Virus record (IMG/VR): IMGVR_UViG_3300032167_007646
DNA length: 64,000 nt
Reading direction: 5' to 3' (one strand)
Source of the DNA: a virus
Lineage: Duplodnaviria > Heunggongvirae > Uroviricota > Caudoviricetes
Numbering within the stretch: position 1 is the first letter of the stretch; each line of letters opens with the position of its first letter. The notes beneath the pieces are model-generated. The model was not told where the DNA came from, ran no database searches, and was given only the letters and a program-made list of their open reading frames with translations. Below, in pieces: positions 1,976-60,080 of this stretch. Position numbers and translations under genes: made by a program.

Positions 1976-2020
1976 CTCAAAATTTAATATTCCTGATTTA
2001 TTTTATTTAATTGTCCACAA

Positions 2021-2033
2021 TTATGTCCAAATA
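2021..2033 (-). promoter_or_regulatory. Recurrent upstream motif (minus strand TTTGGACATAA); representative copy
   Basis: Exact + strand TTATGTCCAAA at 2021, 16495, 21312, 52252; variants at 2637, 6027, 18212, 22585, 26138, 27164, 38541, 40178, 60061, all upstream of minus-strand starts. Confidence 0.7.
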
Positions 2034-2053
2034 AATACTTAAGATGTTTATAA

Positions 2054-2575
2054 TCAAATTAACTCAATCAAATCTTCTTCATAAAAATAACCCATAAATC
2101 TATATTTTTGAGTAGGTATAACATCTTTTGACATCAAAAATTTCTTGAATTCCTCTTTATTTACCCATTTATATCCCATTGTCTCACCTTTTTGCAAAAC
2201 AATAGAATCTTTATCACAATCTACTTCACAAAGAAAAGAATAAAAGAAACAATGACCTTTATCAAAAATAAATTTTACTAACTCCTTAAAATTATTAGAT
2301 AAAATACCTGTTTCCTCAAATAATTCTCTCTTTATACAAGCATATTTATCTTCACCTTTTAAAGCACTACCACCCGCAGTTGCTTCATAATAACCACCAT
2401 AACATTCTTTTGATTTATCTCTATGCATTAAAAGAAAATCACCATCTTTATGTTTTACTATAACATCACATACTAAATGATATAAACCATCTGGTATTTC
2501 TTCACCTCTAACTAAATCTACACCTGCAAGTGTTTCATCTCTATAATAACCATCCCAAATTTCCAAATGAATCAC
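2054..2575 (-). CDS. NUDIX hydrolase
   Basis: Nudix box GGSALKGEDKYACIKRELFEETG (GX5EX7REUXEEXG). Confidence 0.9.
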   Translation of the reverse strand: MIHLEIWDGYYRDETLAGVDLVRGEEIPDGLYHLVCDVIVKHKDGDFLLMHRDKSKECYGGYYEATAGGSALKGEDKYACIKRELFEETGILSNNFKELVKFIFDKGHCFFYSFLCEVDCDKDSIVLQKGETMGYKWVNKEEFKKFLMSKDVIPTQKYRFMGYFYEEDLIELI

Positions 2576-2652
2576 TCCTTTTTCTTTAATATAAATTATA
2601 TTTTCATGACTTATTTTTTATTTTATACCTAATTATTTATGCCCAAATATAA

Positions 2653-2682
2653 AAATGGTGAAAGTATAATCTTTCACCATTT
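2653..2682 (-). terminator. Intrinsic terminator after galE
   Basis: 12-bp inverted repeat aaatggtgaaag/ctttcaccattt, 6-nt loop, T-run on minus strand. Confidence 0.8.
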
Positions 2683-2688
2683 AATTTC

Positions 2689-3690: not shown

Positions 3691-3711
3691 TTAGATTACC
3701 ACCTTTTCTTA

Positions 3712-5964
3712 TTATATTCTTTCATGAAATGTTCTTGCAATTACTTCTAATTGCTTTTCTCTATCTAACTTACAAAATTGAACTGCATAACCACTAACCC
3801 TAATAGTTAAATTAGGATATTCATCTGGATTATTCATAGCGTCAATTAACATATCTCTATTTAATACATTTACATTCAAATGATGTGCATTTTGAACAAA
3901 ATAACCATCTAAAATACCTACCAAATTTTCTATTTGATTTTCTTTTGTTTTTCCTAATGCAATAGGTGTAATTGTAAATGTATTTGAAATACCATCTTGA
4001 CAACAACCATAATTTAATTTAGCCACAGAATTTAATGATGCTAACGCACCATTACTATCACGCCCGTGCATTGGATTCGCTCCTGGTGCAAATGGCTGAC
4101 CTGCTTTTCTACCATCTGGTGTACTTCCTGTTTTCTTACCATATACAACATTTGAAGTAATTGTCAAAATACTTAATGTATGTTTAGCATTTCTATATGC
4201 TTTTGTTTTACATAACTCATTATAGAAAAACTCTGTAACCCATTTAGCAAAACCATCTACATAATCATCATCATTTCCATATTTAGGAAAGTCACCAACT
4301 GTTTCAAAATCAACAATTATTCCTCTTTCATCCTTGATAGGTTTTACTTTTGCATATTTAATTGCACTTAAACTATCCACTAATACACTCAAACCACTTA
4401 TACCAAATGCCATTAACCTTTCAGGCTCTACATCGTGTAAGGACATCATTAACCTTTCATAAGCATATTTATCATGCATATAATGGATAACATTCATTGT
4501 ATTTACATATAATTTAGCCATCCAAGAAGCATATTTTTCAAATGCTTTAATTACTTCATCAAAATCTAAAACTTCTTCATCAAATACTTTTCCTACAGGT
4601 GCTATCTGCTCACCATATTTTTCATCTTTACCACCATTTAATGCCATTAATAAAACCTTAGGTAAATTACATCTTGCACCAAAATATTGCATTTGCTTAC
4701 CTGTTTTCATTGCAGATACACAACAAGCAATAGAATAATCATCACCATAATCTTTACGCATTACATCATCATTTTCATACTGAATGGAATCTGTATCTAT
4801 TGACACCTGAGCACAAAATTTTTTAAACTCTTTTGGTAATTCTGATGACCATAATACTGTAATATTTGGTTCAGCACTTGGTCCTAAATTATACAATGTT
4901 TGCAAAAATCTATAATCTGTTTTTGTTACCATTGAATACCCTTCTTCTGTTACACCTGCCAAAGAACAAGTTACCCACACAGGGTCACCAGCAAATAATT
5001 CATCATATTCAGGAGTTCTCAAATGTCTAACTAATCTTAATTTAATAACAAAATCATCTATCAATTCTTGTGCTTCTTTTTCTGTTATTAAACCCTCTCT
5101 TAAATCTCTATCAATATAAATATCAATAAATGTAGATATTCTTCCAATACTATTTGCTGCACCATTTTGTTCTTTTACAGCACCTAAATAACCAAAATAT
5201 AACCATTGAATTGCTTCACGGGCATTATTAGCAGGCTTTGAAATATCACAACCATACATTTCTGCCATTTGTTTTAACTTTTCCATAAAATCAATTTGTT
5301 TAGCAATTTCTTCTATCAATCTTATATTTTCTTCGGACATATCACATCTATCAGCAATTCTTTTCTTGTCTTTTTTTCTTTCCTCTATAAGAAAATCCAT
5401 ACCATATAAAGCAATACGCCTATAATCACCTATGATTCTACCACGACCATAAGCATCTGGTAATCCTGTTAAAATTCCAGCATGCCTTGCCCTTTTCATT
5501 GTGTCTGAATAAACCCTAAATACACCTGTATTATGAGTTGTTCTATATTCAAAAGCATCTTTTATATGCTGACCTAATTCATAACCATTAGCTTCACACG
5601 CTTGAACAGCATTTCTAAAACCTGCAAAAGGTATTACTGCTCTCTTTAATGGTGCATCTGTTTGTAAACCTACAATTATATCATTCTCTTTATCAACATA
5701 CCCTGGCTTATAATTTAATAAAGAAGAAACAGTATTAGTATCTACATCTAATACTCCACCATTAGCCATTTCCATCTGCAACAAATATTGAACTTTATTT
5801 AATACCTTACTTGTTCTATCTGTTTTATCCTCTAAAAATGAACTATCACCCTCATATTTTGCATAATGTCTTTTTATAAAATCACTGACATTTATTTCTG
5901 TTTGCCACTTACCCTCTTTAAATCCTCTCCAACAAGAGTTCTTCCATAATTCCATAATTATCAC
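3712..5964 (-). CDS. pflB: Pyruvate formate-lyase (formate C-acetyltransferase)
   Basis: 750 aa; [17 protein letters not shown], catalytic IACCVS, glycyl-radical loop IRVSGYAV. Confidence 0.97.
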
Positions 5965-6075
5965 CTCTCTTAAAAAAATAAACTGCTTACTTTATAACAC
6001 ATAATTATAAAGTAAACAGTCTCAGTATATGTCCAATAACATATTTAAACTGTAGATGAAATATCAATAAAAATA

Positions 6076-6104
6076 TTGACAAAACAACTTATTTATGTTA
6101 TAAT
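6076..6104 (+). promoter_or_regulatory. Consensus sigmaA promoter for 6132-6461
   Basis: TTGACA (6076-6081), 17 nt, TATAAT (6099-6104), extended -10 TG. Confidence 0.85.
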
Positions 6105-6131
6105 ATAATTAAGAAAAGAGGTGAAAACATT

Positions 6132-6461: not shown

Positions 6462-6464
6462 TAA

Positions 6465-6498
6465 AAAGGCTACATTTATTTAATCAAATGTAGCCTTT
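6465..6498. terminator. Bidirectional terminator between convergent genes
   Basis: 13-bp inverted repeat aaaggctacattt/aaatgtagccttt. Confidence 0.85.
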
Positions 6499-8782: not shown

Positions 8783-9295
8783 TTAATATTTCTCTAAAAT
8801 CTCTATACAACTCTTCAACAATGTAAATTGTTGATTCAAATAACTCACACTACCTGATTGTAACTGCTGTTCATATTCATTATATTTTAACTTTGCAGAA
8901 CGTAATTCTATATCTCTTACACCTTTTAATACTGAATAAGCTTCTCTTTTTGAAACACTTACTGCAAGAGAACAAAAACCACCTTTTCTCATTATTTGAT
9001 TTATAGTATAAAATTCATTACCTACAACTTTCAAATCATATTCATATAAACAATATTCTGAAGCAACAGTACAAACTCTATTTATATCATTTACAAATCT
9101 TTTTAACAAATCCTCAGATATTTTATCTGTTCCAAAATGTAACCCTAATCTATGTATCTTCCCTAAAATAGCGGGATAAGAACGATTTGGAAAAGTACTT
9201 TGTAATTCTTCCTTACTTACCCCTTTTGCAACACATTTAATCAATCTATTTTCTTCTTCCCTAGTCCAATACAATCCCTTTTTCATCATTCTCAC
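8783..9295 (-). CDS. Myb/SANT-like HTH protein (putative DNA-binding regulator)
   Basis: WTREEENRLIK...EELQSTFPNRSYPAILGKIHRLGL. Confidence 0.6.
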   Translation of the reverse strand: MRMMKKGLYWTREEENRLIKCVAKGVSKEELQSTFPNRSYPAILGKIHRLGLHFGTDKISEDLLKRFVNDINRVCTVASEYCLYEYDLKVVGNEFYTINQIMRKGGFCSLAVSVSKREAYSVLKGVRDIELRSAKLKYNEYEQQLQSGSVSYLNQQFTLLKSCIEILEKY

Positions 9296-12309: not shown

Positions 12310-13080
12310 CTAATTTAGAATTTTACATCTTCTCAAACCATTCTCAAAATACTCTGGATTTAATTCAATACCTATACATTTCCTATCTAAATCAAGAGCA
12401 ACTTTACAAGTAGTAAAACTACCACTAAATGGGTCCAAAACAACATCACCTTTATTACTTGAGGCTAAAATAACCCTTTTTAATAGTTCTTCTGGTTTCT
12501 GTGTAGGATGATTTTGATATTCTGCCATTCTAAATCTAACCCTATTCATATTCCACACATTACCTGGAACTTTCTTTGTATTATAAGGTTGAGGAGGATT
12601 TTTTCTATAATCTATCAATTTCCTCTCACTACCTGTTTTTGCTTCTACCAATATATCTTCTGCATTAAAAGTATATTTAGATTTACTTGTTTTAGTACAC
12701 ATTATAATTGGCTCATATAAAGAACCAAATTTATTTTTTGCCTGCACTCCTGAACTATCATAAGTCCATACAATACGATTTACAACATTATAATTTTCTG
12801 ATACATAAATATCTAAATAAGGCATATATTGAGTTGAAGTCATTATGTAAAAAGTACCATTATCTTTTAATATTCTAAAACACTCATCTATCCAACTATA
12901 ACACCACTTCAAATACTCTTTATAATCTTTCCACTTATCAGAATCATTACCAAAATCTTTTCCTATATTATAAGGTGCATCAGCAAATATCAAATCTACT
13001 GTTTTATCATTTATATCTTTTAATGCTAATAAACAATCTTCATTATAAAATATATTATCATCAACTATACTTTTTATCAT
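12310..13080 (-). CDS. yhdJ: Beta-class DNA adenine methyltransferase, YhdJ-like
   Basis: LIFADAPYNIGK (motif IV variant), VWTYDSSGVQAK, EAKTGSERKLIDYRKNPPQPYN, HPTQKPEELL, VLDPFSGSFTT; strongly recalls E. coli YhdJ. Confidence 0.85.
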   Translation of the reverse strand: MIKSIVDDNIFYNEDCLLALKDINDKTVDLIFADAPYNIGKDFGNDSDKWKDYKEYLKWCYSWIDECFRILKDNGTFYIMTSTQYMPYLDIYVSENYNVVNRIVWTYDSSGVQAKNKFGSLYEPIIMCTKTSKSKYTFNAEDILVEAKTGSERKLIDYRKNPPQPYNTKKVPGNVWNMNRVRFRMAEYQNHPTQKPEELLKRVILASSNKGDVVLDPFSGSFTTCKVALDLDRKCIGIELNPEYFENGLRRCKILN

Positions 13081-15828: not shown

Positions 15829-16428
15829 TTAAATATAATCCAAATACACCCTTTGATTCTCTGGTGCTTGATATAAATAATATCTTAAACACTTATCATA
15901 ATTCATAAAATACTCACTATTATTATGTGTTATTTCTGGATTATTTAATGTCTCATTCAAACAACGAACTATATTCTGTAACAATGTCTTATGTAAAGAC
16001 TGCATCCCTGGCATTATACCCTCTTTGAATAATAAATCATTTTTCATCCATAAAGGACAGCCTAACATATGCTTATCTACCTGCGAAACACCAAACAACC
16101 TATTCGCTAAATCTGCACTACTTCTACTACGAGGGTCATCATCAAAATACCTAATACCCTGTTGAGAAAACATATATAATGATTTCATAACTGTATAGTG
16201 CATTTTCATTATCATATTACTTGTTGTTATATCTTTTTTAAAGTCCTTTACTATTGTTGAATTAACATTATTCTCCATTAAAGTAAATACTGTTTTACTC
16301 TGTATTTTAACTGCTTTTAGCATTTTATGTTGCTCATACATATCAACTTGACTTAAAGTAACATTAGCCTGTGAACACAACTTAAATAATTTTGTGATTT
16401 CTTCCTCTAATCTTGTCATAACAATCAA
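15829..16428 (-). CDS. Hypothetical helical protein
   Basis: 199 aa, RBS, first gene of a motif-preceded unit. Confidence 0.75.
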   Translation of the reverse strand: MIVMTRLEEEITKLFKLCSQANVTLSQVDMYEQHKMLKAVKIQSKTVFTLMENNVNSTIVKDFKKDITTSNMIMKMHYTVMKSLYMFSQQGIRYFDDDPRSRSSADLANRLFGVSQVDKHMLGCPLWMKNDLLFKEGIMPGMQSLHKTLLQNIVRCLNETLNNPEITHNNSEYFMNYDKCLRYYLYQAPENQRVYLDYI

Positions 16429-16514
16429 CTCCTTATAAATCTGCTATACTAAATTATACTTATTAGACTGTTATTTATGTTTTTATTAACTTAATTATGT
16501 CCAAACTTTATTCA

Positions 16515-17000: not shown

Positions 17001-17668
17001 TTTATCACCTGTTTATCTTCTTCTAAAATCCTTAACACTTCTAATAATTCAGGTAAATAATCTGGCAAACTATTATATTCTTCTTCTTTAATTTCTACAT
17101 TTAATTTTCTAACATCTTGTAAAATAACTCTATAATATGCTACACAATCTCTGGAACCTTTTGTAACTGATACCAAATCTATGAAAGTATATGTATCTGT
17201 CTTTGATATTATATAAGGTGTATCAACTTCTTTATTAAATACTATAATTTCTGACCCATTAGTAGAATTTAAAGTTGTATTCAATTTCTCAACCAAATCA
17301 ATCATAATAGACTTATTAACATTATTATTAACTTCTAAAATAGTAGAAGTAATACTTATACAATTTTTACCAACATTAACAGAAGTCATAGAACCCTCAT
17401 TATTTACTTCTAAATTTGAATTATTATAAGCTAATAAATTATAACTTTTACCATTATAATCCATTGGCACAAAACTTAATTTACTCTCTGAACTTATCTC
17501 TACACCACTCTTTGTAATAGCATAATAATGTTCTATTCCCTTACAATATAACCCCTGTGAACCTATTACACCCAATATACAAAATAAAAGAAAACTAATT
17601 ACCAATACTACCAACATTTTCTTCATATTCCACAATTCCCCCATCATTATCTTCACTAACTTCCTCAC
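16997..17668 (-). CDS. Hypothetical exported/membrane-anchored protein
   Basis: MKKMLVVLVISFLLFCILG signal/TM; true start probably about 17626. Confidence 0.7.
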   Translation of the reverse strand: MRKLVKIMMGELWNMKKMLVVLVISFLLFCILGVIGSQGLYCKGIEHYYAITKSGVEISSESKLSFVPMDYNGKSYNLLAYNNSNLEVNNEGSMTSVNVGKNCISITSTILEVNNNVNKSIMIDLVEKLNTTLNSTNGSEIIVFNKEVDTPYIISKTDTYTFIDLVSVTKGSRDCVAYYRVILQDVRKLNVEIKEEEYNSLPDYLPELLEVLRILEEDKQVIK

Positions 17669-18143
17669 CCTCGCACCAAGAAGAATCTAAATGACACATA
17701 AATTCTACAACTTCTATAAGACACCAATTTAACAAAATTGCACAATTATCTACAATCTTTTTCAATGCTTCTACGGGTGTTAAATTTTGACTTAATTTCT
17801 TTATAAAAATCTCATCACTATTATAACATATATCAAACTCATTGTCAATATTCTTAAACAATTTATTTAAGTCTATATCACTTAAATACAAACCTTTAAC
17901 ATAACGAGATAATCTTAAATATGTCTCAATATTTTGATAACTCTCACTACTCACATGACCACTACAACTATCTAAAACAATAAAACCTTTTTTTTGCAAA
18001 TCCAAAACTATTGGCAATATAGTATCATCTACATCACACAAAGTTCCAGTACAATTTCTTATAGGACAAATAAATGTACCTTTAACTGACTTTAAGTAAC
18101 TTAAATCAAAACTATTACCACATTCTAAACATACATAAGCCAT
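17595..18143 (-). CDS. Hypothetical Zn-ribbon protein
   Basis: CLECG...CPIRNC N-terminus and KKGFIVLDSCSGH motif; acidic tail. Confidence 0.7.
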   Translation of the reverse strand: MAYVCLECGNSFDLSYLKSVKGTFICPIRNCTGTLCDVDDTILPIVLDLQKKGFIVLDSCSGHVSSESYQNIETYLRLSRYVKGLYLSDIDLNKLFKNIDNEFDICYNSDEIFIKKLSQNLTPVEALKKIVDNCAILLNWCLIEVVEFMCHLDSSWCEGEEVSEDNDGGIVEYEENVGSIGN

Positions 18144-18225
18144 AATATCACACCCTTTCTTTATTTTAAATTATAATAAACTGTTTATTTTTCTGTCCAT
18201 TTAAAATTACTTTTTGCCCAAATAA

Positions 18226-19137: not shown

Positions 19138-21261
19138 TTACTCCTTATTTTCTACCTTTAATTTTACAGATATATTAGAAGTCAATATAACATTATCTAA
19201 TCCATCAAACTGCATTATCATATTATATTTTCCTACTGATAACTCTGAAGCATCTATATATGGTCTTATATTATCCTTAGTAATTGAGGATAAAACAGAG
19301 TCCTCACCACTTATAACTATACTAAAAGTACTATCCTCTATAATGGCCTTATAATTACTATTTAAACCCCTTAATTCCACATTTTCTTTATTAAATGTTA
19401 TAGTACTCGTATTTAACAATTCAAAATGTAAAGTTATAATAACCTCATCATTTTCCCCTGCAAAATAAATACCATCTGACAAATAATCAGATATTTTTAT
19501 AGATTTCGCAAACTCATTATTTGTCAAGTTATTAACATCTATATTTATATCTGCCAAAATATCTAATACTTCTAAGGATGCAATTCTATCTTTATTTCCA
19601 GCTAATCTCACATTCTGTGGTTCAAAAGTAAAACTATCTACTTTATAACCACCTATAACTTCTTGACTCAATTCTATATTTATTGGTATTTCCTTTACAG
19701 GATAACTTTCACCATATGCTTTAACCTCATAATTATCAAATGTAAAATAATCATTAGATAACTCATTACCATTTCTATCATATACTATTGGTTCTGCATT
19801 ACCCTCAAATGTACCCACTGCGTCAGTAGTATCATAAGTATAAACTACCTTATCAACAGTATCTATTTTGGATTTACCACCTGTTAAAATAACCTTATCT
19901 ATATCACTATATAATACAGGAACAAAAGTTGAACTGCTCAATTCTGAATATCTTTCTAAAACAATAGGTACTTCTTTACTCACAATAGAGTCTAATTCTA
20001 CTGTTATTGTATCTCCTGCTAAAAATCTTATATCACAATTAGGAGCACCCTCTACATAACCCTGTAATAATACAGCATTAACATAGGATAATTTAGTCAA
20101 GTCTGCTACAACTTTTATATCTTCTTTATAAATCTTATCTACAACAGAACGATTTGCAGTTACTTCTACATCCACAAATTCTTCTGAAGTAATTTCAAAT
20201 GTTTTTCCTGTTGATTCTATAACCTGAGTATTAATCACCTCAATAGGAACATCATTAAAAACAACAGATGTCATAGGATTTGAAACATTCATAAGTAATA
20301 CCCAACCCACAACACCTACAACTATTGAAGATAAAGTTGCTACTATCTCATCTTTACTAAATAACTCTTTAATACTAAACTTATTAAACTTAAATTTAAC
20401 CTTTTCCTTTACCTGACTAACATCTGTTACTTCTTCTTTTTTCTGATATTTATAAAGTAATTCAGTTAATTTTTCTTTTGTTAAATTACCCTCTATTTTA
20501 CCATTATAAGAAAGAGAAACATTACCTGTTTCTTCTGAAACTATAATTACAACTGCGTCTGTAAACTCACTAGCACCAACTGCTGCACGATGGCGAGTAC
20601 CTAATTTTTTATTTATATTAGTTTTCTTAGTTAAAGGTAAATAACAAGTTGCTGCTGCTATTCTATCCTTTACAATAATCATAGCTCCATCATGCATTGG
20701 TGTGTTTTTTTCAAACATATTTATAATTAACTGTGAAGTTATTGTAGAATCTGTTTCTAACCCTGTTTCAATATACTCTGTTAAAGGTATATCTCTTTCT
20801 AATACAATCAAAGCACCTGTTTTAACCTCACCCATTGAAAAACACGCTTTTGAAAGTTCTGCAATACTTTTATCACTATAATACTTATATACTTCTTTAT
20901 CTTTCTTAAATAAAGAAATTATATCCAAATCACCAACTATATTTTTCTTACCTAAACTTTCAATAAATTTTCTTATCTCTGGTTGAAATACTATTATTAT
21001 TGCAAATAATAAAATAGTTAATACACTTTGGAATATTACTAATATAGCATCAAAATTCAAGAGATAAGCTACATTATAAAACAAAAATAAAATAAAAATA
21101 CCTTTTAACACTATCTTTGCTCTTGTATTCCTTAATCCTTTTATTATTTTATGTATTAAATATATCAATATAAAAATTTCTATAATATCTCCTAACCTAA
21201 ATGTAGGTATATAAACAGAAGATATCTCTTTTAATTGTGTTAAAAAATTCAAAAACCTCAC
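19138..21261 (-). CDS. cdaA: Diadenylate cyclase CdaA fused to YbbR/CdaR repeat domains
   Basis: 3 N-terminal TM helices, VFQPEIR, GALIV, catalytic HDGA and GTRHRAA, IIVSEETG; then a TM helix and several YbbR-like repeats (707 aa). Confidence 0.92.
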   Translation of the reverse strand: MRFLNFLTQLKEISSVYIPTFRLGDIIEIFILIYLIHKIIKGLRNTRAKIVLKGIFILFLFYNVAYLLNFDAILVIFQSVLTILLFAIIIVFQPEIRKFIESLGKKNIVGDLDIISLFKKDKEVYKYYSDKSIAELSKACFSMGEVKTGALIVLERDIPLTEYIETGLETDSTITSQLIINMFEKNTPMHDGAMIIVKDRIAAATCYLPLTKKTNINKKLGTRHRAAVGASEFTDAVVIIVSEETGNVSLSYNGKIEGNLTKEKLTELLYKYQKKEEVTDVSQVKEKVKFKFNKFSIKELFSKDEIVATLSSIVVGVVGWVLLMNVSNPMTSVVFNDVPIEVINTQVIESTGKTFEITSEEFVDVEVTANRSVVDKIYKEDIKVVADLTKLSYVNAVLLQGYVEGAPNCDIRFLAGDTITVELDSIVSKEVPIVLERYSELSSSTFVPVLYSDIDKVILTGGKSKIDTVDKVVYTYDTTDAVGTFEGNAEPIVYDRNGNELSNDYFTFDNYEVKAYGESYPVKEIPINIELSQEVIGGYKVDSFTFEPQNVRLAGNKDRIASLEVLDILADINIDVNNLTNNEFAKSIKISDYLSDGIYFAGENDEVIITLHFELLNTSTITFNKENVELRGLNSNYKAIIEDSTFSIVISGEDSVLSSITKDNIRPYIDASELSVGKYNMIMQFDGLDNVILTSNISVKLKVENKE

Positions 21262-21325
21262 CCCAAACCAAAAATATTATACTACAGTATAATATTTCCA
21301 ACTGTAGCCTTTTATGTCCAAATAA

Positions 21326-22206: not shown

Positions 22207-22551
22207 TTAACTCGCAAAAGGAGTAGCATATACTAAATCACCATTATTTATTTGTCTTTCTATAAAGTCCATAGTTTCAAAACAAAAATAGAAAGTATCT
22301 ATTCCTGATATAGTAATATACCAACAACCTTTATAAAAATCATCTTTTTTAGCAGTAGCTTTACTCTTAAATTTTTTTGTTAAATAATCTTCTATACAAG
22401 ATTTTGCCTGAGCATTTTTACCTAATTTTAGTTCTACAAGTTGACTATTACCTATAATAAAACCTGCATTATCTAATTGTGTTAAATAACCCTTAACTAC
22501 TTTACGAACTGTATTATTTTCAATAGGACTTTTTACTGCCATATTAAACAC
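22207..22551 (-). CDS. Hypothetical protein
   Basis: 114-aa ORF. Confidence 0.7.
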   Translation of the reverse strand: MFNMAVKSPIENNTVRKVVKGYLTQLDNAGFIIGNSQLVELKLGKNAQAKSCIEDYLTKKFKSKATAKKDDFYKGCWYITISGIDTFYFCFETMDFIERQINNGDLVYATPFAS

Positions 22552-22607
22552 TCCCCTATATTTATTCTAAACAAATATAAGTATTTATGCTCAAATTTCA
22601 TGTATTT

Positions 22608-25679: not shown

Positions 25680-26147
25680 TCATTTTACACGTAATCCAAA
25701 CCATACTCTACCTACACGACTATTCTTTGTCATAATTGCCGCTGTTTTTTGTGCATCTGACTTACTATATGTTTTAGCCTGATTTATATAAAAAGTATAT
25801 TCACCTCTACCATTACCTTTATACATTCTACTATACACGCCATCATCTGAAGCTATTATCCAAACTTGCTTTGACTCTGCATCTTTTTTTGCTAATCTTG
25901 CTTCTTCTTTTTCTTGTTTATCTAACATTCTTTCATAATATGCTTCTTCTTCTGGAGTCATTATATCAGCATTTCCATCATCATACTGTAATACATAATC
26001 ACCATTTTTATAAAAAGTACCCATATATCTATACCCATTACAATTACACCAATCTCGTGCTTCTATCTCATTATTAACAGATATGAAATGAACCATTATA
26101 ATCACTCCCTTACATTCTCTTAATTTAATATACCTATTTATGTCCAT
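25680..26147 (-). CDS. Hypothetical protein
   Basis: True start probably MVHFIS (about 26096, AGGGAG RBS). Confidence 0.7.
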   Translation of the reverse strand: MDINRYIKLRECKGVIIMVHFISVNNEIEARDWCNCNGYRYMGTFYKNGDYVLQYDDGNADIMTPEEEAYYERMLDKQEKEEARLAKKDAESKQVWIIASDDGVYSRMYKGNGRGEYTFYINQAKTYSKSDAQKTAAIMTKNSRVGRVWFGLRVK

Positions 26148-26153
26148 AAAAAC

Positions 26154-27123: not shown

Positions 27124-27198
27124 CCCTCAAACTTTATATATTTATTTTCTTTTATGCATTGATTTATGTCCATATATAAATAAAAACAGAATAAAAAT

Positions 27199-28608: not shown

Positions 28609-28930
28609 AAAATCAACTCCTAATTTATTTTTACTACTTTAAAATAAGTTTAATTGTACCATCTAACTGTAGTTATAAAAATAATATGTCTCCATATTTA
28701 CAAAAATTTTATATTTTTTATAGATAAAATATTTTTATCATTACTTTATCACAAATATAATTTAACTTATAAAAATTATAAATATTTCTTCAAACAAGCA
28801 TAAAATAATATTGTTATTTCAATATTTTATTATTTAAAAATATAACATTATACTTTTTATTGCTATTTCAACAAATCATTCAATTTCTTTTAAAAAAGAT
28901 ATTTTATTTTAAAATATGATAAAAACAAAA

Positions 28931-37351: not shown

Positions 37352-38080
37352 TTATTTTATATCTGAATAAATTTTACTTATTCTATCTATACTTTTTTCA
37401 AAATACTCTCCATTTAGCTCACAACCATAAAAATTCCTATCCAAATTAACACAAGCCAACGCTGTTGTTCCACTACCTGAAAAACAATCTAATACATTAT
37501 CTCCAATATTAGAATGTTTTTTAACCAATTCTTCTATTAAACCTAAAGGTTTTTGAGTAGGATGAAATCTATCTTTACTATGACAAATAGGATATTTATA
37601 AACACCTATATCATATTCACTATTAAAAGTTGGTTTTGACCCTTTTACACCAACAACTGCTATCTCACGAGAATTAGTTAAATAATTCACTTTACTATTA
37701 ATTGGAACAGGATTTGTCTTTTGCCATTCTATGAAACGTAACTGCTTAAATTTTGCATTCTCAAAATATTCTTTTAATTTAGTTATTTTCCATAAATCAT
37801 AAAAACAGATTAAAGTTCCACCTTTACGAAGTACCCTGTAACTATCCAATATAACTTTATCTAAACCTATGAAATTATTATCCCAATCACCAAAATCCAT
37901 AGACATTCTAAATCTATCAACATCTCTACCTGTTTTTTCACTTTTGGCAAAATTTGTTTCCCTTGAAACTTCATAAGGAGGGTCTATTAAGACTAAATCT
38001 ATACTATTTGACTCAAGAGTCTTTATATATTCAAAACAAGAAACATTCTTTAATTCTATATGTAAATCATTATTAGTCAA
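37352..38080 (-). CDS. Beta-class DNA adenine methyltransferase
   Basis: LVLIDPPYE, HPTQKPLGLI, VLDCFSGSGTT. Confidence 0.92.
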   Translation of the reverse strand: MTNNDLHIELKNVSCFEYIKTLESNSIDLVLIDPPYEVSRETNFAKSEKTGRDVDRFRMSMDFGDWDNNFIGLDKVILDSYRVLRKGGTLICFYDLWKITKLKEYFENAKFKQLRFIEWQKTNPVPINSKVNYLTNSREIAVVGVKGSKPTFNSEYDIGVYKYPICHSKDRFHPTQKPLGLIEELVKKHSNIGDNVLDCFSGSGTTALACVNLDRNFYGCELNGEYFEKSIDRISKIYSDIK

Positions 38081-38112: not shown

Positions 38113-38439
38113 TTACATTCCACTAAGACCTATAAGAGCAAGAATACTTGCACCACTTATAGCAATAACAAGAAGAGCTCCTAATATACCACAAATCTGT
38201 AAAGCAAAGAATACCCAAGGAAGCCAAGTAGGACAATCATCTGCTTTTAAAGGCTGACCATTTTTATCTGTCATAGTATTTTTAGCATGCTTATACATAT
38301 CAATAATAGTACCTACTCCACAGCAACCACCTGTTAAGAGCCAAATGATACCTGTACCAATTTTACCTAAATAAAATCTATGAATACCCCAGCATCCTAA
38401 AAATCCATTTAACAATGTTGAAACCAATTTACTTTTCAT
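38113..38439 (-). CDS. TM2/NINE domain membrane protein
   Basis: FLGCWGIHRFYLGKIGTGIIWLLTGG. Confidence 0.88.
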   Translation of the reverse strand: MKSKLVSTLLNGFLGCWGIHRFYLGKIGTGIIWLLTGGCCGVGTIIDMYKHAKNTMTDKNGQPLKADDCPTWLPWVFFALQICGILGALLVIAISGASILALIGLSGM

Positions 38440-38596
38440 TACCTTTTCACCACCTTTACGCTATGATATAGTATAAATGATTTTATATAAATCAAAGAAA
38501 TTGACTAATTTCATACTTTTATTTTACAAACTGTCCATCAATATGTCCAAAAAAGAACACAGATGCTTTTATATTATAACATCTGTGTTTTACAAA

Positions 38597-38831: not shown

Positions 38832-40163
38832 TTATAAAATAACTTCTTTTATAGTCATAAAATACCCCAATTCATTTATTTTATAAACTTCACAAACAAG
38901 TTCAATTTCCCCATTTGGTCCTACTTTATTTACAAAATGCTCTATCATATTATTCTCATCTGTTTCTCTATCTATATAACAAAGAACTGAAATAAATGTA
39001 AATTCTTCATTCTCACCTTTTAATGAAATATAAGGTTCATCTTCTCCTAAATTCATAGTTGCAATAGTACCTGATACTTTTATATTTTTATTTAAGTATT
39101 TTTCTTTTGTTTGTACTAAATCTAATTGTAAATCATTCTTTAACTCATCAAAAGAAACTTCTAATTCATACTCTGTACTACCCATTACTTCTGAAAAATA
39201 TTTAACATATTCTTCTGATGGACCCTCATCCACTACTTCTTCTAACTTAAAATATATTTCATTTATATCTAAATAATAATTACTACTATCTATATCTGAT
39301 ATATAACAAACCATACTTATTTCTTCTTTTTTATTATACTTTTTTAATTCTTCAATTTGCTTATTTCTTTCTTCTTCATCACTATCTAAATAACAAATAA
39401 TTTTTTTACTGTTATTTCTATCTAACGAAATTAGTGTTACATAAGGCTTATCTACATCTAACTTTAATTCACCTAAACCACCTTTTACTCTTACATCCTT
39501 ACCTAAATACTCTATTATTGCCTCTTCTTTACCCTCATTTAACTTTGCAATTAAATCATCCACAGAAACCTCTGTATCAAAATTTGTTATATGTTCTGAA
39601 TTATCATTATATTCTTTTGTGTCATCAAAATCTTTTGGACTTTCAAAATCAATATCATCATCATAACCGTCATTATCTAAATCACTATAATTATCTTCTT
39701 TTTTCTGTTTTTCTTCTTTTTCTTTCTTTTCCCCTCTATCTTCTAAACCATAATCTATTTTTTCTTCCACTACTTCAATGTCTTGAATTTTTATCTCATC
39801 TTCAACTTGATTTATTTTAAATATTGTAAGACCTACTGTAGCACCAACTATTATCATAACAATACATAAAATTAAACATATTATACAAGCAACTGCATCA
39901 ATAATCCAGGGTATATGATTCTTTACATCTTCAACTAAATTATTACCATTTTTATCAGTCATCTTATTACGACAAATATTTATATTATCTACTAACGTTC
40001 CTATACCAAAACAACCATGAGTTAATAACCATAAAATACCTGTTCCTATTTTACCTAAATAAAATCTATGAATACCAAAACCACCTAAAAAGAAACAAAG
40101 TAAAAAAGTAACTAATTTACTTTTCATACAATCAGTCCTCCTTAAATTTACAAAATTACCCAT
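38832..40163 (-). CDS. TM2 domain protein with acidic linker and two tRNA_anti-like OB-fold repeats
   Basis: FLGGFGIHRFYLGKIGTG (true start about 40127); repeats EVSVDDLI...YLGKDVRVKG and EVSFDELK...YLNKNIKVSG. Confidence 0.8.
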   Translation of the reverse strand: MGNFVNLRRTDCMKSKLVTFLLCFFLGGFGIHRFYLGKIGTGILWLLTHGCFGIGTLVDNINICRNKMTDKNGNNLVEDVKNHIPWIIDAVACIICLILCIVMIIVGATVGLTIFKINQVEDEIKIQDIEVVEEKIDYGLEDRGEKKEKEEKQKKEDNYSDLDNDGYDDDIDFESPKDFDDTKEYNDNSEHITNFDTEVSVDDLIAKLNEGKEEAIIEYLGKDVRVKGGLGELKLDVDKPYVTLISLDRNNSKKIICYLDSDEEERNKQIEELKKYNKKEEISMVCYISDIDSSNYYLDINEIYFKLEEVVDEGPSEEYVKYFSEVMGSTEYELEVSFDELKNDLQLDLVQTKEKYLNKNIKVSGTIATMNLGEDEPYISLKGENEEFTFISVLCYIDRETDENNMIEHFVNKVGPNGEIELVCEVYKINELGYFMTIKEVIL

Positions 40164-40199
40164 ATTATATTAGTTATTTTTGTCCAAATATAACAAAAA

Positions 40200-44927: not shown

Positions 44928-44956
44928 ATTATATCATATTTAAAAATGTTTGTCAA
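44928..44956 (-). promoter_or_regulatory. Consensus sigmaA promoter for the ABC-PARG-FAD operon
   Basis: TTGACA, 17 nt, TGnTATAAT. Confidence 0.85.
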
Positions 44957-50421: not shown

Positions 50422-52032
50422 TTAGTTATTTACTTTCTTATCTTTTGAACGATAAAGGAAAAAGAGAACACCACAAGCAATTACAAGCATACTTAAGCCA
50501 TATACCTTAAATGGTAATGTACCACTACCACCTGTTTGAGGTAATGAACCACCAACACTATTATTAATAGTTACAACTACATTACCTGGCATTTCAGAAT
50601 CTTCATCTTCAACTGAGAATGATGAAGTTATTGTAGCAAGGTTCTGTCTATGAGTTGTTTCAAACTTATCATCTTTTGCATCACCATCTACTGTATATAC
50701 AGCATTAATATTTGCATTAATATTACCTAATAATGGATTATAACCTGCAGGAGCCGCTGTTTCTTTAATATAATAAGTAGCTGCGTCTAATCCTAAAATT
50801 GTCATAATACCTGTATTATCTGTTGTAATTTCAGTAACAGCATCCACAGTTCCACTTGTTACTACTTCATATACATTATTTGTAGAAGTTTCTTTTAAAT
50901 ATACAGGATTATTATTAGCTGCATCAGAGAATAACTTAAATGAAGCACCTTCCAAATAATCACTTGTATTATTAGCATCTACTTTATGAATACTCATACT
51001 ATAAGAATAAACTATTGTATTATCCCAAGCAGTAGTATTTCTTTCACTTGTATTATAAGGGTCACTGCTATATGTTAACATTGCTCTTGATAAATTACCA
51101 CCTTGACCTGTCTCACCATTTCTTAATACAAATTTTGAAGAATCTACATTAGCAGTATAAACTATATCCACACCTGTAATACCATTTGCAACAGCATTTT
51201 TCATACCACTAAATATAATTGATACAGTATTAGCCGCTGAATCTTCTTCTACAGTATATGTAATACTAGCAGGAGTAGCTACAGTAGCACTTGCTGAATT
51301 CTTAAAAACCACACTTTCTATATCATCAAATACAATACCTTTTTCTAACTCTATATCAATAGTATAATCATATTGTGTATAACCCCTCATATCAGTTATT
51401 GAACCTGTTAATTTATATTCAATAGGCTCATCAAAAGAAATATCAGTAATATCTATATAACTATCTGAATCATCATCATATACTTTCATAAGTAAAGTAG
51501 GAGCACTTGACTTTACTGCTACTGTCTCATTTTTTGTAGCTACTTCTAGAATAGCCAATGAACGAGCCTCATGAACACTTGTTTCTTCTACAATTAAATA
51601 ATAACCTTTACTTTGTACCTGAATACTTTTAGTACCTGAACCTGCAGGGTCAATAGGATTACCTATAGCATAGTTCATAATTTCTGCTGCAAAGGCATCT
51701 ATATCAGCAGCAGTTGTTAAACTTGAAACATACTCAACAGCACTATTTTTACCTTTACCTGCTAAAAACTCTGGAGTAAAATATCCAGCAAAATCAGGGT
51801 TTAATGTATAACCTATTTTTTCATTCTCACCCTCACCTGTTGATGTTGCAGAGAAAATCATATACGCATCATATGTATCTCCATCTGTTCCTGTAAGAGT
51901 AATTGTATAAACTTCAGCAGCAGATACATTTACACAAACAAGAGAAAACAACATCATAATAACTAATAATGAACTAAAAATTCTTTTCATCTTTTTGTCA
52001 GCCTTACACCACATAAGGCTTCCTCCTCTCAA
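50422..52032 (-). CDS. Major (backbone) pilin, SpaH/EbpB-like
   Basis: Signal peptide, VAVKSSAP pilin-like Lys, E-box YYIKETAAPAGYN, LPQTGG + TM + basic tail. Confidence 0.9.
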   Translation of the reverse strand: MRGGSLMWCKADKKMKRIFSSLLVIMMLFSLVCVNVSAAEVYTITLTGTDGDTYDAYMIFSATSTGEGENEKIGYTLNPDFAGYFTPEFLAGKGKNSAVEYVSSLTTAADIDAFAAEIMNYAIGNPIDPAGSGTKSIQVQSKGYYLIVEETSVHEARSLAILEVATKNETVAVKSSAPTLLMKVYDDDSDSYIDITDISFDEPIEYKLTGSITDMRGYTQYDYTIDIELEKGIVFDDIESVVFKNSASATVATPASITYTVEEDSAANTVSIIFSGMKNAVANGITGVDIVYTANVDSSKFVLRNGETGQGGNLSRAMLTYSSDPYNTSERNTTAWDNTIVYSYSMSIHKVDANNTSDYLEGASFKLFSDAANNNPVYLKETSTNNVYEVVTSGTVDAVTEITTDNTGIMTILGLDAATYYIKETAAPAGYNPLLGNINANINAVYTVDGDAKDDKFETTHRQNLATITSSFSVEDEDSEMPGNVVVTINNSVGGSLPQTGGSGTLPFKVYGLSMLVIACGVLFFLYRSKDKKVNN

Positions 52033-52065
52033 ATTTTATTTTTTTTATTTTTAAATTACAATAAA

Positions 52066-52094
52066 ATAACCTTGTAACAAAGTTACAAGGTTAT
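52066..52094. repeat. Perfect 13-bp inverted repeat upstream of pilin (operator or hairpin)
   Basis: ataaccttgtaac-aaa-gttacaaggttat. Confidence 0.7.
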
Positions 52095-52300
52095 GGTTTT
52101 TATATAAGTAAATTTAGGCATAGGACATCTACAAAAGGAATTAATTTCCTTTTATAACAATATTTAATTCACTTCTTCAAATAACCAATAAACTTATAAC
52201 AGAGTTACAAAAATTATCTACTGTTATACTAATTATTTTATCAGTTATCATTTATGTCCAAATTATAACATACTGAGCATATATTTTCTTTATTATGTTA

Positions 52301-57200: not shown

Positions 57201-58034
57201 ATTATATAAATTAGGGTCTAAATCTCCATTTAAACAAGAAATTATATTCTCCTTTATCCACTCCAAAGGTTTTTCTGTTTTAGTTCCATCACCAAATTTT
57301 ATAGGATATAAACCTGTTTCTTTATTTTCAACAAGAGTATCACCATTCCATTTTACTAAAAATGTAGTTAAATCACGCAAACCTTCTACTCCATCTTTTA
57401 ATAAAACTTCACCTGTATGACCTGCCATATATTTATAATACTCTTTCTGCCATTTCTTTTCCATAATAATAGCAATTATCTTTATATCTCTTAATGTTTT
57501 AGACTGAATAGTTCTCATAGAAGCTAAACTTGTCTTATCTATATTGAAAAAGTCTGCTGCACAGTTACAACCAAATCTTAAAACCTCATGAGTTTTCTTA
57601 TTCGCAGCAAAATGAGCATATCTTACAGGGCGAGGACATAAATCACACTTATGTCCATTATTTTTACCCGCATCTGTCATTCCATCATATACCCAATCTT
57701 CCAAATTAAACTTCTTTATACCCATTTCCTCTGTCAATTTCTTTATTTTCTCTTTTATTTTTTGATTTCTCTGTTCTATCTGTAATTCAACAGTACCATT
57801 CAAATCCTTATATAATTCCACAGAAAAACCCCTAAAATATGAGTCTAATAATTGTCTTTGAACAGGATTAAATAAAGCATAAACTTCTTCACTCTCATCA
57901 CCCTTATAACGATTTTCAATAGCATCCATTACAACTCTATCAAATTCCTCTTTTGTTTCCTGCTCTCTCTGAATCTCTTCATCACTTTTAGTTATCTGCA
58001 TATCTTTTGCATCATCTATATACAAACGAGACAT
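54252..58034 (-). CDS. 1260-aa hypothetical protein with N-terminal Zn-binding motif and two C-terminal ~50-aa repeats
   Basis: WVYDG...CDLC...RYAH...FGCNC; repeats HPDFNTLDSLEKGI...CSEKQ..Y...KLG and HSDFKTLSDIEKGV...CSDKQ..Y...KLG. Confidence 0.85.
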   Translation of the reverse strand: MSRLYIDDAKDMQITKSDEEIQREQETKEEFDRVVMDAIENRYKGDESEEVYALFNPVQRQLLDSYFRGFSVELYKDLNGTVELQIEQRNQKIKEKIKKLTEEMGIKKFNLEDWVYDGMTDAGKNNGHKCDLCPRPVRYAHFAANKKTHEVLRFGCNCAADFFNIDKTSLASMRTIQSKTLRDIKIIAIIMEKKWQKEYYKYMAGHTGEVLLKDGVEGLRDLTTFLVKWNGDTLVENKETGLYPIKFGDGTKTEKPLEWIKENIISCLNGDLDPNLYNKIEDRKVVKIPVKEEDKSQMNTAGYVKYALKFVEVGLPIPKSLCDRLNRIISKATRQHHPDYLKYTQDLLISYNLAKSSLLKTAFTEFITSYLSEKMKVSERDPELKYWNINGQVSFYKAVLTWETMVTKLMAIKDIKTLVNKGLISEEELDKIMSKDAYGYNRVINYINDCMTMFMSSKPVIKRPENMDEGYSKYMLDGVDKRIGIDIDGTSKIEKGRYNLDAKFNADIIPFNVSRYFRVIQGGYRNIIKESLVNIQKLLKCVAYLETEEEIAQFLCSLITTSKGIEHTIMTCQHYNLMNLDKDKVMRLATQEYPPREEFYKAILKKYKGNFKKFKKDCGELYNILGELVSNLKDYKEANNRADLFVDYDDLVVNQEKTNREYFEDYCDLLIAKRANKKMQPYMKQKNLYDLVAFKIMAPYADMLKDIMETYSNAKQEAEEEKLYDYLNLGALKNDLKRLLDTPDLDTFTLGVLSIIFKEKRLFERGSAASLAYVNFCNMDSPLHTDSVIDELKQAIPEEIYNKCISDYSDDFENLYNALKELFIGLKNDKITFEKHYRLLYQNGIDVLKELKKNSSFIGVEKYRTALNEKYNENGSGDFKYHHSDMDAGEFFNSIKWYNNVSAFYMVIETSLIPLIEEYKAKEEERKQDELIKGPVLERVKRYLDEHIKYHEVNVAAERRTGRYSGYSDNGIRRAVAFNEVKYQDSAKELERFLEVLMSCVDRNDWNNGVEEIVADCNVVGSLDGRKLKKYRNALRAECYNHNLIYNHFELTYRVLKDLREMDKMQLTKLEIVELSDILGRYYLLKHDVKNIWKILMKYGATAIDLATEHNNLPKPNQLNIEDVLVEDEGGRDKSGLTGVQKAEKLKEHPDFNTLDSLEKGISETVSQKKTCSEKQLYYINRACVKLGIIKSDEVADDKKDVQESDDIKALACKVVAHSDFKTLSDIEKGVSTTISKTGRCSDKQKKYFDSAVKKLGLNS

Positions 58035-58052
58035 TCAAACCACTCCTTTCAA

Positions 58053-59600
58053 CTAATTTCCTATCTCTACTTCTACAATATATCTTATTTTATATCTGTT
58101 CTGATTATATACTATAAATTCATTATGAAATAAAGAATAATAATTTGTCTTAAACATTTGATAAAACTTTTCTTTACTTATCTTCAAATCTTTTGTTCCA
58201 CCAATACCCTTTATATCACAACCATACTTAAAAGCATCTTGACCTACACCCATAACACTATTACAACCCGTAGGTGCATGAGCAAAATTACGAGCATGCA
58301 TTTCCATGTGCATTTTACCTAATGCTACATCACATAATAACAAGAAATATCTATTACCTTTATTACGAGTACCACCAAAACGAGAAGTAGAATACTGTAA
58401 TGCTTTTGAATATTCTCCAAAATATACTCCTGGACCAAACATAGCGCCTGTCAACTGAATATTAGGTCCTAAATTTGCAGGAAGTTTAATACTTGTAGAT
58501 AAAATACCCAATAAATTTGCACCTCTAGTTCCATGAAATAATGAAACTACATTACCACAACTTGCATCAAATTGAGGTGCATTTAACTGATTTACCTCAT
58601 AAACATTTACTAATCTTGTTCTTAAATGGTGATTATCTAATTGTTCTTTCTTCATTTTCTCTTTAATTGAATTAAATATACCCTCATCTGTTACAAGAGT
58701 TATTTCACTATTTAACCCTTTATATTTTGTTGTAGTATCAACATCATAATTAGTATTTAATACAGCATTTGATAAACCTACTTCCAATATTTCCAATAAA
58801 TCATATTGTTCCATCAATTTTTCACCTGTATCTAATAACCAATCTGTTGAACCTCTACTTATAACACGAGGTATTGTCATATTATACATATTAGATAATT
58901 CTGCTATATCATTACGAAGTTTCTCAATATTCCTTTTAGCAGTCGCTAATTTATTTTGAACTTCACTTATTTGCTTTAATATTTCTCTACCCCTTAATAT
59001 CATTTTATGATTTATCATACCAAGAGGGTTTTCTGAACTTTGGAATTGTTCAGGATTTATAGACCTTTTAATAGTCTGATTAGCCTCAGCATAAATGGTT
59101 TCCACCAATTTTGATACTTTTGGAGAAATAGCTTTAATTTCTGTTTTCTTTTCTGGTTTTGTTGCCTTTAATTCCTCTGCTAACTCCTTATTTTTATCAA
59201 TTATACCCTTTGCAACATTACTATCTAAAACATTTTTCTCTGTTACAAAACCTTTTGCTGCTGCACTACAGTTAGGATAAATAGAAATGACTTCAACTTC
59301 TTGATAACCCTCTTTTAACCTTTTCTTACATTCATCCAAATAAATATTTTTTACCATTATCTCACTTGCAAATCTTCTAATTCTTGCCTGTATATCATCT
59401 GAACCTAAACGACCACTAGTTATTGCTAAATAACACATTTTTCCATCTTTTAGAATTTCTATATTACAAAATTTATTACTTACTTTATTAGTCTTTATAT
59501 CACCTTTTGAATAAATATAAGATGCTATTTTCATACATTCTACATTTACATTTGTATAAACTTTATCAATATCACCAATTATTTTTATATTATCAGCCAT
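58053..59600 (-). CDS. Poly(ADP-ribose) polymerase (WGR-like + regulatory + catalytic domains)
   Basis: SNKFC.IE...SGRLG (WGR-like); MYNMTIPR (regulatory); FHGTRG, GAMFGPGVYF, ALQYS, LLLCDVALGK, HNEFIVY (H-Y-E triad). Confidence 0.93.
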   Translation of the reverse strand: MADNIKIIGDIDKVYTNVNVECMKIASYIYSKGDIKTNKVSNKFCNIEILKDGKMCYLAITSGRLGSDDIQARIRRFASEIMVKNIYLDECKKRLKEGYQEVEVISIYPNCSAAAKGFVTEKNVLDSNVAKGIIDKNKELAEELKATKPEKKTEIKAISPKVSKLVETIYAEANQTIKRSINPEQFQSSENPLGMINHKMILRGREILKQISEVQNKLATAKRNIEKLRNDIAELSNMYNMTIPRVISRGSTDWLLDTGEKLMEQYDLLEILEVGLSNAVLNTNYDVDTTTKYKGLNSEITLVTDEGIFNSIKEKMKKEQLDNHHLRTRLVNVYEVNQLNAPQFDASCGNVVSLFHGTRGANLLGILSTSIKLPANLGPNIQLTGAMFGPGVYFGEYSKALQYSTSRFGGTRNKGNRYFLLLCDVALGKMHMEMHARNFAHAPTGCNSVMGVGQDAFKYGCDIKGIGGTKDLKISKEKFYQMFKTNYYSLFHNEFIVYNQNRYKIRYIVEVEIGN

Positions 59601-59621
59601 TTGTATTCACCCTCTTTCACA

Positions 59622-60014
59622 TTATACACCATATTCTCTTTTAATACGATTTTCTAAACTTTCTAAATAATTTGTTACACAACCTAATTGAAAATTTCTT
59701 GAAGTCCTATCCCTTCTACGAGCCGCATTCTCCCATAATCTCTTATGACCTAATACAGAACTTATATCTGAATGGAATAAACCATTTGTTGAAGTATAAT
59801 CTATAATTTCTTTATCAGTTCTACCATTAAATTCTATACCATTACTACTTAATATTGCTTTACACAAATTTAATAAAGATAAATCCATATTTTTAACTAT
59901 TTCATCACAATCTGAATTACCCCACCAATAAGGAGAATATCTATAACTTTCTACAAATATTCTCTGTTGTTTTGCATGTTCTATATAACTTTTCGCTGAC
60001 ATCATAATTATCAC
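59622..60014 (-). CDS. Hypothetical protein, paralog family D
   Basis: YIEHAKQQRIFVES...LLNLCK...LWENAARR. Confidence 0.78.
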   Translation of the reverse strand: MIIMMSAKSYIEHAKQQRIFVESYRYSPYWWGNSDCDEIVKNMDLSLLNLCKAILSSNGIEFNGRTDKEIIDYTSTNGLFHSDISSVLGHKRLWENAARRRDRTSRNFQLGCVTNYLESLENRIKREYGV

Positions 60015-60080
60015 CTTTTTTCTATTTATTTACTTTAAAATAAAATAAACTGTCATTTATTTATGCTCAAAAATTTTCTT

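Follow-up and report, generated by a model that had tools for sequence, protein, structure and literature searches.

What starts the transcription of those phage genes that have no host-type promoter in front of them? The question is raised by a 64,000-nucleotide stretch of DNA from the virus record IMGVR_UViG_3300032167_007646 (Caudoviricetes), here called the window, in which an earlier note, made from the sequence alone, had pointed out a short motif recurring upstream of minus-strand genes and never in company with a perfect sigmaA promoter, and had read this as a two-tier transcription programme with a site comparable to the MotA box of phage T4. This motif, denoted here M1, marks about half of the promoter regions in the window, and the view that it is a promoter-associated, element-specific cis-element defining a second class of transcription units is well supported by the comparisons described below. 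The two-tier idea is thus retained as far as the existence of a second, promoter-associated class is concerned, on the strength of the placement, orientation, conservation and exclusivity of the boxes, while the analogy with the MotA box fails on both sequence and spacing.

The four exact copies and nine close variants on which the idea was based are all present in the window, and their alignment yields a 13-base consensus on the gene strand, TTTGGACATAAAT(A), whose core form may be written (T)TTGGACATAAAT(A) and in which variation is confined to TG[G/A][A/G]CA and to the A/T tail. The corresponding 11-mer, which reads TTTGGACATAA on the gene strand and TTATGTCCAAA on the plus strand, is indeed as rare by chance as had been estimated: it occurs exactly at 2021, 16495, 21312 and 52252, that is, four times against 0.13 expected, and none of 100 shuffles reached this number. 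Allowing up to one mismatch to TTATGTCCAAA raises the count to 13 against 3.85 expected, which was again reached by no shuffle. A blind count of 7-mers in 3.9 kb of gene-strand intergenic DNA placed TGGACAT, TTGGACA, GGACATA and TTTGGAC at the top; only TGTTATA, which belongs to the extended -10 of sigmaA promoters, ranked alongside them.

The phage's own sequence that was read, 91.8 kb in all (the window plus the loci L093, L097 and L099) of a genome of at least 301 kb, was then scanned with a matrix derived from these 13 sites of the window. The 15 matches scoring 15 or more lie without exception on the gene strand and in true intergenic DNA, and two more accepted boxes, with scores of 12.5-12.8, bring the total to 17, four of them outside the window. 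The only other matches at the 12.5 level are two in coding DNA, and no antisense match reaches that level in the 91.8 kb. Three of the boxes fall inside open reading frames when the longest frame is called, and in gaps according to the gene calls. Since intergenic DNA makes up only 8.5% of the sequence, such a placement is not due to chance. The remark that the sites often lie just past terminators also holds, as a strong terminator hairpin ends within about 25 nt upstream of M1 in 8-9 of the 17 boxes, and a gap that opens with a terminator needs a new promoter.

The host-type promoters of the same phage provide a sharp contrast. This class is rigid, with about 25 instances of TTGACA/T, a spacer of exactly 17 nt and TGnTATAAT, and the window holds 8-9 perfect examples, all of them devoid of M1. 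Their first hexamers are found on the minus strand at 44956 (the promoter spanning 44928..44956 may serve as the type of the class), 37335, 36819, 32314, 27928, 17848, 7988 and 1160, and a further one, also lacking M1, lies on the plus strand at 6077-6105. Conversely, the gaps with M1 have no TTGACA -35 hexamer, and no transcription unit carries both M1 and TTGACA-17-TGnTATAAT, in agreement with the mutual exclusion claimed at the outset. Given about 34 gaps, 13 boxes and 8 sigmaA promoters, the absence of overlap in the window corresponds to a hypergeometric p of about 0.01. A generic sigma70 scan was uninformative in such AT-rich DNA (136 sites against 138 expected). Two of the perfect sigmaA promoters are internal to coding sequences, one within the gene at 17595-18143 (17820-17848, minus strand; conserved in L092, the nearest of the relatives introduced below) and the other at 1132-1160.

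The position of M1 relative to the genes is that of a -35 element. Counted from the end of TGGACA, the start codon follows at a median of 57 nt (44-78 nt for 13 of the 17 sites), compared with 58 nt (43-79 nt for 12 of 16) for the sigmaA -35 hexamer, so that M1 can be placed in the -35 zone. In addition, TGGACA is TTGACA with a single change, and that change is invariant. No second conserved block or fixed spacer was found downstream of M1 in 22 aligned sites. What does recur is the box itself. The second copies of plus-strand TGTCCA reported previously are present at 2012 and 38532, 12 bp off, and at 18194, 21 bp off; overall, extra boxes are found at 12 bp (2012, 38532 and position 20276 of the related locus L003), at 20-21 bp (at 18194-18222, at the orthologous sites of L003 and L005, and again before the gene for a putative 224-residue regulator described below) and at 41 bp (three cases), where 0.06 would be expected per offset.

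A second box, M2, with the sequence (CT)ACAGTT, accompanies some of these sites. Its complement AACTGT had been noticed at 21300, 38529 and 60048, where it is indeed found, as it is at 6048 and 18179. In at least three independent promoters, M2 follows TGGACA at a distance of exactly 9 nt, and in a fourth the distance is 10 nt. Two promoters have M2 on the upstream side of M1, 20-21 bp away, and in the orthologous gaps of the related loci L090 and L091, which have kept both blocks and changed the spacer, M2 lies downstream of M1 at about 40 nt. The intergenic enrichment of the hexamer is mild (6 of its 30 gene-strand copies, where about 1.8 would be expected), and it is the fixed register with M1 that makes it credible. 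Because the boxes are multiple and in phase, and because one of them is inverted, these arrays are better explained by a DNA-binding protein than by a sigma factor recognizing a -35.

Related phages were reached through a diadenylate cyclase (CdaA) fused to YbbR domains that is encoded in the window, and about 110 kb of their sequence was scanned. With the identity of the CdaA protein in brackets, they are L092 (85%), L003 (57%), L005 (54%) and L090/L091 (53-56%). In five gaps orthologous between the window and L092, 63 of the 65 M1 positions are identical (97%), compared with 394 of 475 positions (83%) in the flanks (Fisher p = 0.0016). In L003, L090 and L091, M1 is kept in orthologous gaps whose spacers have diverged: the cdaA gap of L003 retains GTTGAGCATAAAT followed by CTACAGTT in an otherwise diverged sequence, with more boxes before other genes, and L090 and L091 have M1 before the orthologous ATP-binding cassette (ABC) transporter gene, before a gene for a 196-residue protein that follows an acetyltransferase, and before a third gene. 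In L005 there are degenerate copies only. Some orthologous gaps have no box, such as the pflB gap in L003, and hence the box undergoes turnover, as expected of promoters. By every comparative measure applied to these sequences, M1 is real, functional and specific to the phage.

How would such a box work? The reading that we favour, to which we assign a probability of roughly 0.4, is that M1 acts as an activator box in the -35 zone, with two paralogous winged-helix/zinc-ribbon proteins of the phage as the best candidates for its readers. In this model, transcription units would begin with an M1 box, in most cases right behind the terminator of the unit before; a phage-encoded DNA-binding protein would bind M1, whether single or repeated two to three times along the same face of the helix, and would recruit the host RNA polymerase to a weak and variable -10, taking over the part of -35 recognition in the fashion of a class-II activator. 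M2, as a member of these arrays, may have the second paralogue as its reader. What we infer here is activation, the nature of the reader and the timing of expression, and a phage-encoded factor acting on M1 is more likely to be an activator than a sigma factor.

By analogy, the system might work like the class of -35-less phage promoters that depend on a phage DNA-binding protein or, alternatively, like a sigma switch. The late promoter A3 of phi29 and Nf has no -35 element and depends on the phage activator p4 bound upstream (PMC2731898). The M1 class would resemble A3 in consisting of -35-less phage promoters in need of a phage DNA-binding protein (here proposed), placed beside strong host-type promoters, but the target of p4 is a defined upstream site in a single promoter region, whereas M1 occupies the -35 zone in 17 units or more and sometimes forms in-phase arrays, and no p4 homologue was seen. 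In T4, the MotA box, (a/t)(a/t)(a/t)TGCTT(t/c)A, is centred at -30 and lies 12 +/- 1 bp from a good -10, as part of sigma appropriation by AsiA and MotA. The likeness is one of logic alone, in that both systems have a phage-specific box in place of the -35 hexamer in a second promoter class; M1 has a different sequence (TTTGGACATAAAT), keeps no fixed distance to a -10 and occurs in tandem. Among the Pfam and PHROG matches over the 92 kb covered, out of at least 301 kb, there is no homologue of MotA or AsiA. Another parallel is offered by the PhoB/PhoP boxes, direct repeats of TT(A/T/C)ACA on the coding strand that replace the -35, have a period of about 11 bp, are required in at least two copies and are read by a winged-helix protein. 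As in that system, promoters lacking a -35 hexamer have in their -35 zone direct repeats that share an orientation and an ACA core, and the candidate readers of M1 have winged helices; unlike it, most M1 boxes are single, the spacings are 12, 20-21 and 41 bp, and the candidate proteins fall outside the OmpR family.

These candidates are encoded by two paralogous genes located 10-15 kb beyond the low-coordinate end of the window, that is, downstream in gene orientation (L097 5264-5938, 224 residues, and L097 9035-10339, 434 residues), and they are preceded by the densest arrays of boxes. The array before the shorter gene consists of CTACAGTT, an inverted TTTGACATTT, TTTGACATAAAT and, 20 bp on, TTTGGACATATTT, with ACAGTT 9 nt later, and it is kept in a relative with 79% identity. 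In the array before the longer gene, which adjoins a helicase gene, CTACAGTT is joined by three boxes at intervals of 22 and 19 bp. In both proteins a winged helix (HTH_11/MarR/RepL-like) comes first, then a helical part and last a zinc ribbon, a domain order that recalls archaeal TFE and eukaryotic TFIIE-alpha. The family is tiny, with seven relatives at E <1e-10 among 1.84 billion representatives, and a fold search with a structural model of the 224-residue protein (predicted local distance difference test score, pLDDT, of 69) matched only generic MarR/CRP/DtxR winged helices. It is conceivable, if improbable, that the two paralogues represent a new kind of promoter-specificity factor, one reading M1 and the other M2, which together would replace the -35 recognition of the host sigmaA at a regulon of auxiliary genes in megaphages of Firmicutes. 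The readers that the earlier note had named within the window fared less well: they show no DNA-binding or sigma signal, save for a weak, sub-threshold GcrA/D5-like match for 8783-9295. Between the M1 array and the 434-residue gene there is also a palindrome with 10-bp arms (TATACTATTT, 4 nt, AAATAGTATA; L097 8990-9015, about 14 kb beyond the low-coordinate end of the window), which is possibly a separate operator.

Several observations weigh against the activator model. The -10-like TAnnnT hexamers are scattered from 8 to 23 nt after TGGACA, with weak peaks at 8, 18, 20 and 23, and boxes of such variable geometry could equally be operators or activator sites. A weak site, TATGGACAAAAAA, situated 15.4 kb past the low-coordinate end of the window, is only 37 nt from its start codon and thus too close for a -35 role. 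High-scoring antisense copies of M1, one of them perfect, exist in the coding DNA of L003 (3591 and 12853) and L091 (12897), and may be chance occurrences or antisense promoters. As for the paralogues, PHROG profiles place their winged helix nearest to replication initiators; the link with M1, drawn from the arrays before their genes and from nothing else, makes them candidates; and, if they activate their own genes, they would need another source for their first expression. Finally, the 92 kb or so that was read belongs to a genome of at least 301 kb, and a gene for a phage sigma factor or RNA polymerase may thus lie elsewhere.

This last point leads to the possibility, which we consider somewhat unlikely, that M1 is instead an extended -35 element for an alternative sigma factor encoded elsewhere in the phage genome, in a switch of the SPO1 gp28 type. 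TGGACA is one position off TTGACA and lies at a -35-equivalent distance from the start codons; the box is strictly oriented with the gene strand; the subset of promoters with M2 has -10-like hexamers (TAAAAT, AATAAT, TATAAT) 16-18 nt after TGGACA; and the G is invariant, whereas a sigmaA -35 weakened at random would have its mismatches at various positions. However, 22-23 sites reveal no second conserved block, no fixed spacer and no sharp offset peak, in-phase tandem boxes and an inverted copy would be unexpected for a -35 element, and no Sigma70 domain reached the Pfam cut-off in the proteins scanned or pre-annotated in 92 kb of the phage and about 110 kb of its relatives, most of the genome being unseen. 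The invariance of the mismatch also bears on another explanation, namely that M1 is a mere weak variant of the sigmaA -35 giving low constitutive expression with no extra factor. TGGACA does match TTGACA at five of six positions, and AT-rich -10-like hexamers abound downstream; but the 13 conserved positions extend far past a -35 hexamer and are kept across relatives with 53-85% identity, the same mismatch is seen at every site, and the sigmaA class of this phage is extremely rigid, all of which makes this explanation very improbable. A reading of M1 as a -10 similar to that of T4 late promoters (CATAAATA matching TATAAATA at 7 of 8 positions), with ACAGTT initially transcribed, fits the 9-nt spacing and was dropped, given that about 40 nt separate M1 from M2 at the ABC-gene promoters of L090 and L091 and that tandem boxes would go unexplained. 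The GG-N10-GC signature of sigma-54 and the sporulation sigma factors E, K, F and G were likewise considered for M1 and dropped, as was a polar motif of the Chi or KOPS type, which would occur in coding DNA too.

A protein bound at M1 might also act in a different sense. M1 and M2 could be operators or iteron-like sites of the RepL-like winged-helix proteins, which would serve in repressing or time-gating weak sigmaA promoters and perhaps marking an origin near their genes. The palindrome and the three direct repeats at 22 and 19 bp before the 434-residue gene, beside a helicase gene, would suit such a role, as would the matches of the winged helices to RepL and replication-initiator PHROGs, the varying position of the box relative to the -10-like hexamers, and the CTACAGT-N12-ACTGTAG inverted repeat in the cdaA promoter region. 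Like iterons, the boxes form in-phase direct repeats before RepL-like winged-helix genes (three for the 434-residue protein; two plus one inverted for the 224-residue protein); unlike iterons, at least 14 further boxes are dispersed over 80 kb at unrelated promoters, co-oriented with the genes. Moreover, 17 single, co-oriented boxes at an equal distance from start codons, in gaps devoid of a -35, would be atypical both of iterons and of repressors of complete promoters, and we regard this alternative as unlikely. The involvement of a host regulator, which would couple phage genes to the physiology of the host, is more doubtful still. The reverse complement of the M1 core, TGTCCAA, is one base from the 0A box of Spo0A, TGTCGAA, whose tandem copies are separated by a 3-bp gap, i.e., have a 10-bp period, and phi29 and Nf do use 0A boxes (PMC2731898). 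The 0A box, known from Firmicute phages, also resembles a -35 hexamer with one inserted base. Nevertheless, the distinctive G of TGTCGAA is present in none of the 17 sites, which read TGTCC, TGCCC or TGCTC and always have C at position 5; TGTCGAA is absent from the window (1.27 expected); and M1 tandems are spaced by 12, 20-21 or 41 bp rather than paired at 10 bp, so that canonical Spo0A, suggested in the earlier note as a host reader, is disfavoured. Another response regulator, AgrA, could be invoked, since ACAGTT corresponds to the first six bases of its site, ACAGTTAAG (PMC11039898). Sites of this LytTR type are 9-bp direct repeats with 12-13 bp between them. In this case, the 20-21-bp periods join M2 to M1 or M1 to M1 and never M2 to M2; no M2-M2 direct repeat of the LytTR (AgrA) type is seen, and the scanned proteins contain no LytTR domain. 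The 12-mer form of the motif, in turn, stays at chance level in 401 Clostridia genomes, with at most four copies in each, the same as a reversed control, although this is a weak test, as only one window site matches the exact 12-mer. A search of the literature for the motif string matched only primers.

Host-type early promoters followed by a phage-specific class are textbook phage biology, and the finding is for this reason useful rather than surprising. To our knowledge, nearly everything known of the megaphages of gut Firmicutes comes from metagenomes, and how they regulate their genes has not been studied. M1 allows their genomes to be partitioned into regulons from sequence alone, supplies two candidate proteins and a defined oligonucleotide with which binding could be assayed directly, and gives a handle on the timing of expression of host-like genes, among them those for pyruvate formate-lyase, the cyclic di-AMP (c-di-AMP) cyclase, PARP/PARG, the pilus, and magnesium and potassium transport.

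The phage itself is, from its sequence and its occurrence, an uncultured gut megaphage of a low-GC Gram-positive host. This attribution is based on the presence of an identical CdaA protein on a contig of 301,593 bp (related ones occur on contigs of up to 395 kb) and on the recovery of phage DNA from metagenomes of animal faeces or gut, represented by 20 public DNA runs, with no RNA run among them. The window has a G+C content of 27.5%, with about 90 genes on the minus strand and one on the plus strand. Its phage-type genes comprise three orphan N6/N4 DNA methyltransferases and several PHROG families, and its host-like genes encode pyruvate formate-lyase, a NUDIX protein, the CdaA-YbbR fusion, MgtC, TrkA/TrkH, an ABC exporter, PARP, PARG, and a sortase with LPXTG pilins. 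Matches to phage and plasmid records were trivial, scans of viral contigs found no close relative, and scans of metagenomes and genomes based on the CdaA alignment led to bacterial loci only (34-58% GC for the metagenomic ones). The 109-residue protein at 63475-63804 has a single match, on a contig of 979 bp. More than 700 relatives share the architecture of the CdaA-YbbR fusion (19138-21261); the phage clade, with 45-100% identity, is found on contigs of up to 395 kb, and the nearest bacterial copies, 43-50% identical, belong mostly to Lachnospiraceae and other Clostridia. In spite of the phage cdaA, no Rfam family, the c-di-AMP riboswitch included, reached its gathering score in window positions 1-64000.

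The individual boxes, all on the minus strand, illustrate the range of these arrangements. At the low-coordinate end, TTTGGACATAATT (2019..2031) lies upstream of the gene at 1337-1975 and is followed 12 bp downstream by a second TGGACA (plus-strand TGTCCA, 2012-2017), while TTTGGGCATAAAT (2635..2647), directly after a terminator, precedes the NUDIX gene (2054-2575). The pflB gene (3712-5964) has ATTGGACATATAC (6025..6037), with CTACAGTT 21 bp upstream (6048-6055) and ACTGTT 9 nt downstream. A second TTTGGACATAATT (16493..16505), upstream of 15829-16428, has orthologous boxes in L090 and L091. Before the gene at 17595-18143, the tandem formed by TTTGGGCAAAAAG and AATGGACAGAAAA, 21 bp apart (18189..18222), is followed by ACAGTT (18179-18184) 9 nt after the proximal TGGACA, and the 21-bp tandem is kept in L003 and L005. 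The cdaA-ybbR fusion gene is preceded, after a terminator, by TTTGGACATAAAA (21310..21322), with CTACAGTT (21300-21307) 9 nt after TGGACA. Just downstream of this box, CTACAGT, 12 nt and ACTGTAG form a perfect 7-bp inverted repeat (21282-21307) that is conserved in L092.

Further along, TTTGAGCATAAAT (22583..22595) lies upstream of 22207-22551, and TATGGACATAAAT is found twice: directly after a terminator at 26136..26148, upstream of the gene at 25680, whose real start is about 44 nt past the hexamer, and, also after a terminator, at 27162..27174, upstream of the DNA methyltransferase gene 26194-27123. A 351-nt gap upstream of 27934-28608 contains M2 (CTACAGTT, 28665..28672) with no canonical M1, a degenerate GAGACATAT lying 16 nt upstream. 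Two boxes after terminators precede TM2 genes, namely TTTGGACATATTG (38532..38551), upstream of 38113-38439, where a second TGGACA 12 bp downstream of M1 overlaps ACAGTT (38529-38534), and TTTGGACAAAAAT (40176..40188), upstream of a TM2/tRNA_anti-like gene (38832-40163). The three orphan methyltransferases, which are paralogous, belong to phrog_67 and lie within 26 kb (12310-13080, 26194-27123 and 37352-38080), have different settings, one directly after an M1 box (27174), one in the M1 unit at 38551 and one in a long operon.

At the high-coordinate end, TTTGAGCATAAAT recurs at 60059..60071, upstream of the unit formed by 59622-60014, PARP and a 1260-residue protein, with ACAGTT (60048-60053) 10 nt after the hexamer. 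The pilin gene (50422-52032) has its box, TTTGGACATAAAT (52250..52262), about 240 nt upstream, and the leader in between (52033-52262) contains two hairpins, the second of which is terminator-like and lies just before the start codon, so expression of the pilus is possibly attenuated via this leader. Just outside the window (L099 7906-8100, about 65552-65360 in window numbering), a perfect M1 is followed by about 155 nt with no open reading frame and then by a terminator hairpin, a region that is a candidate for a small RNA or leader driven by the M1 class.

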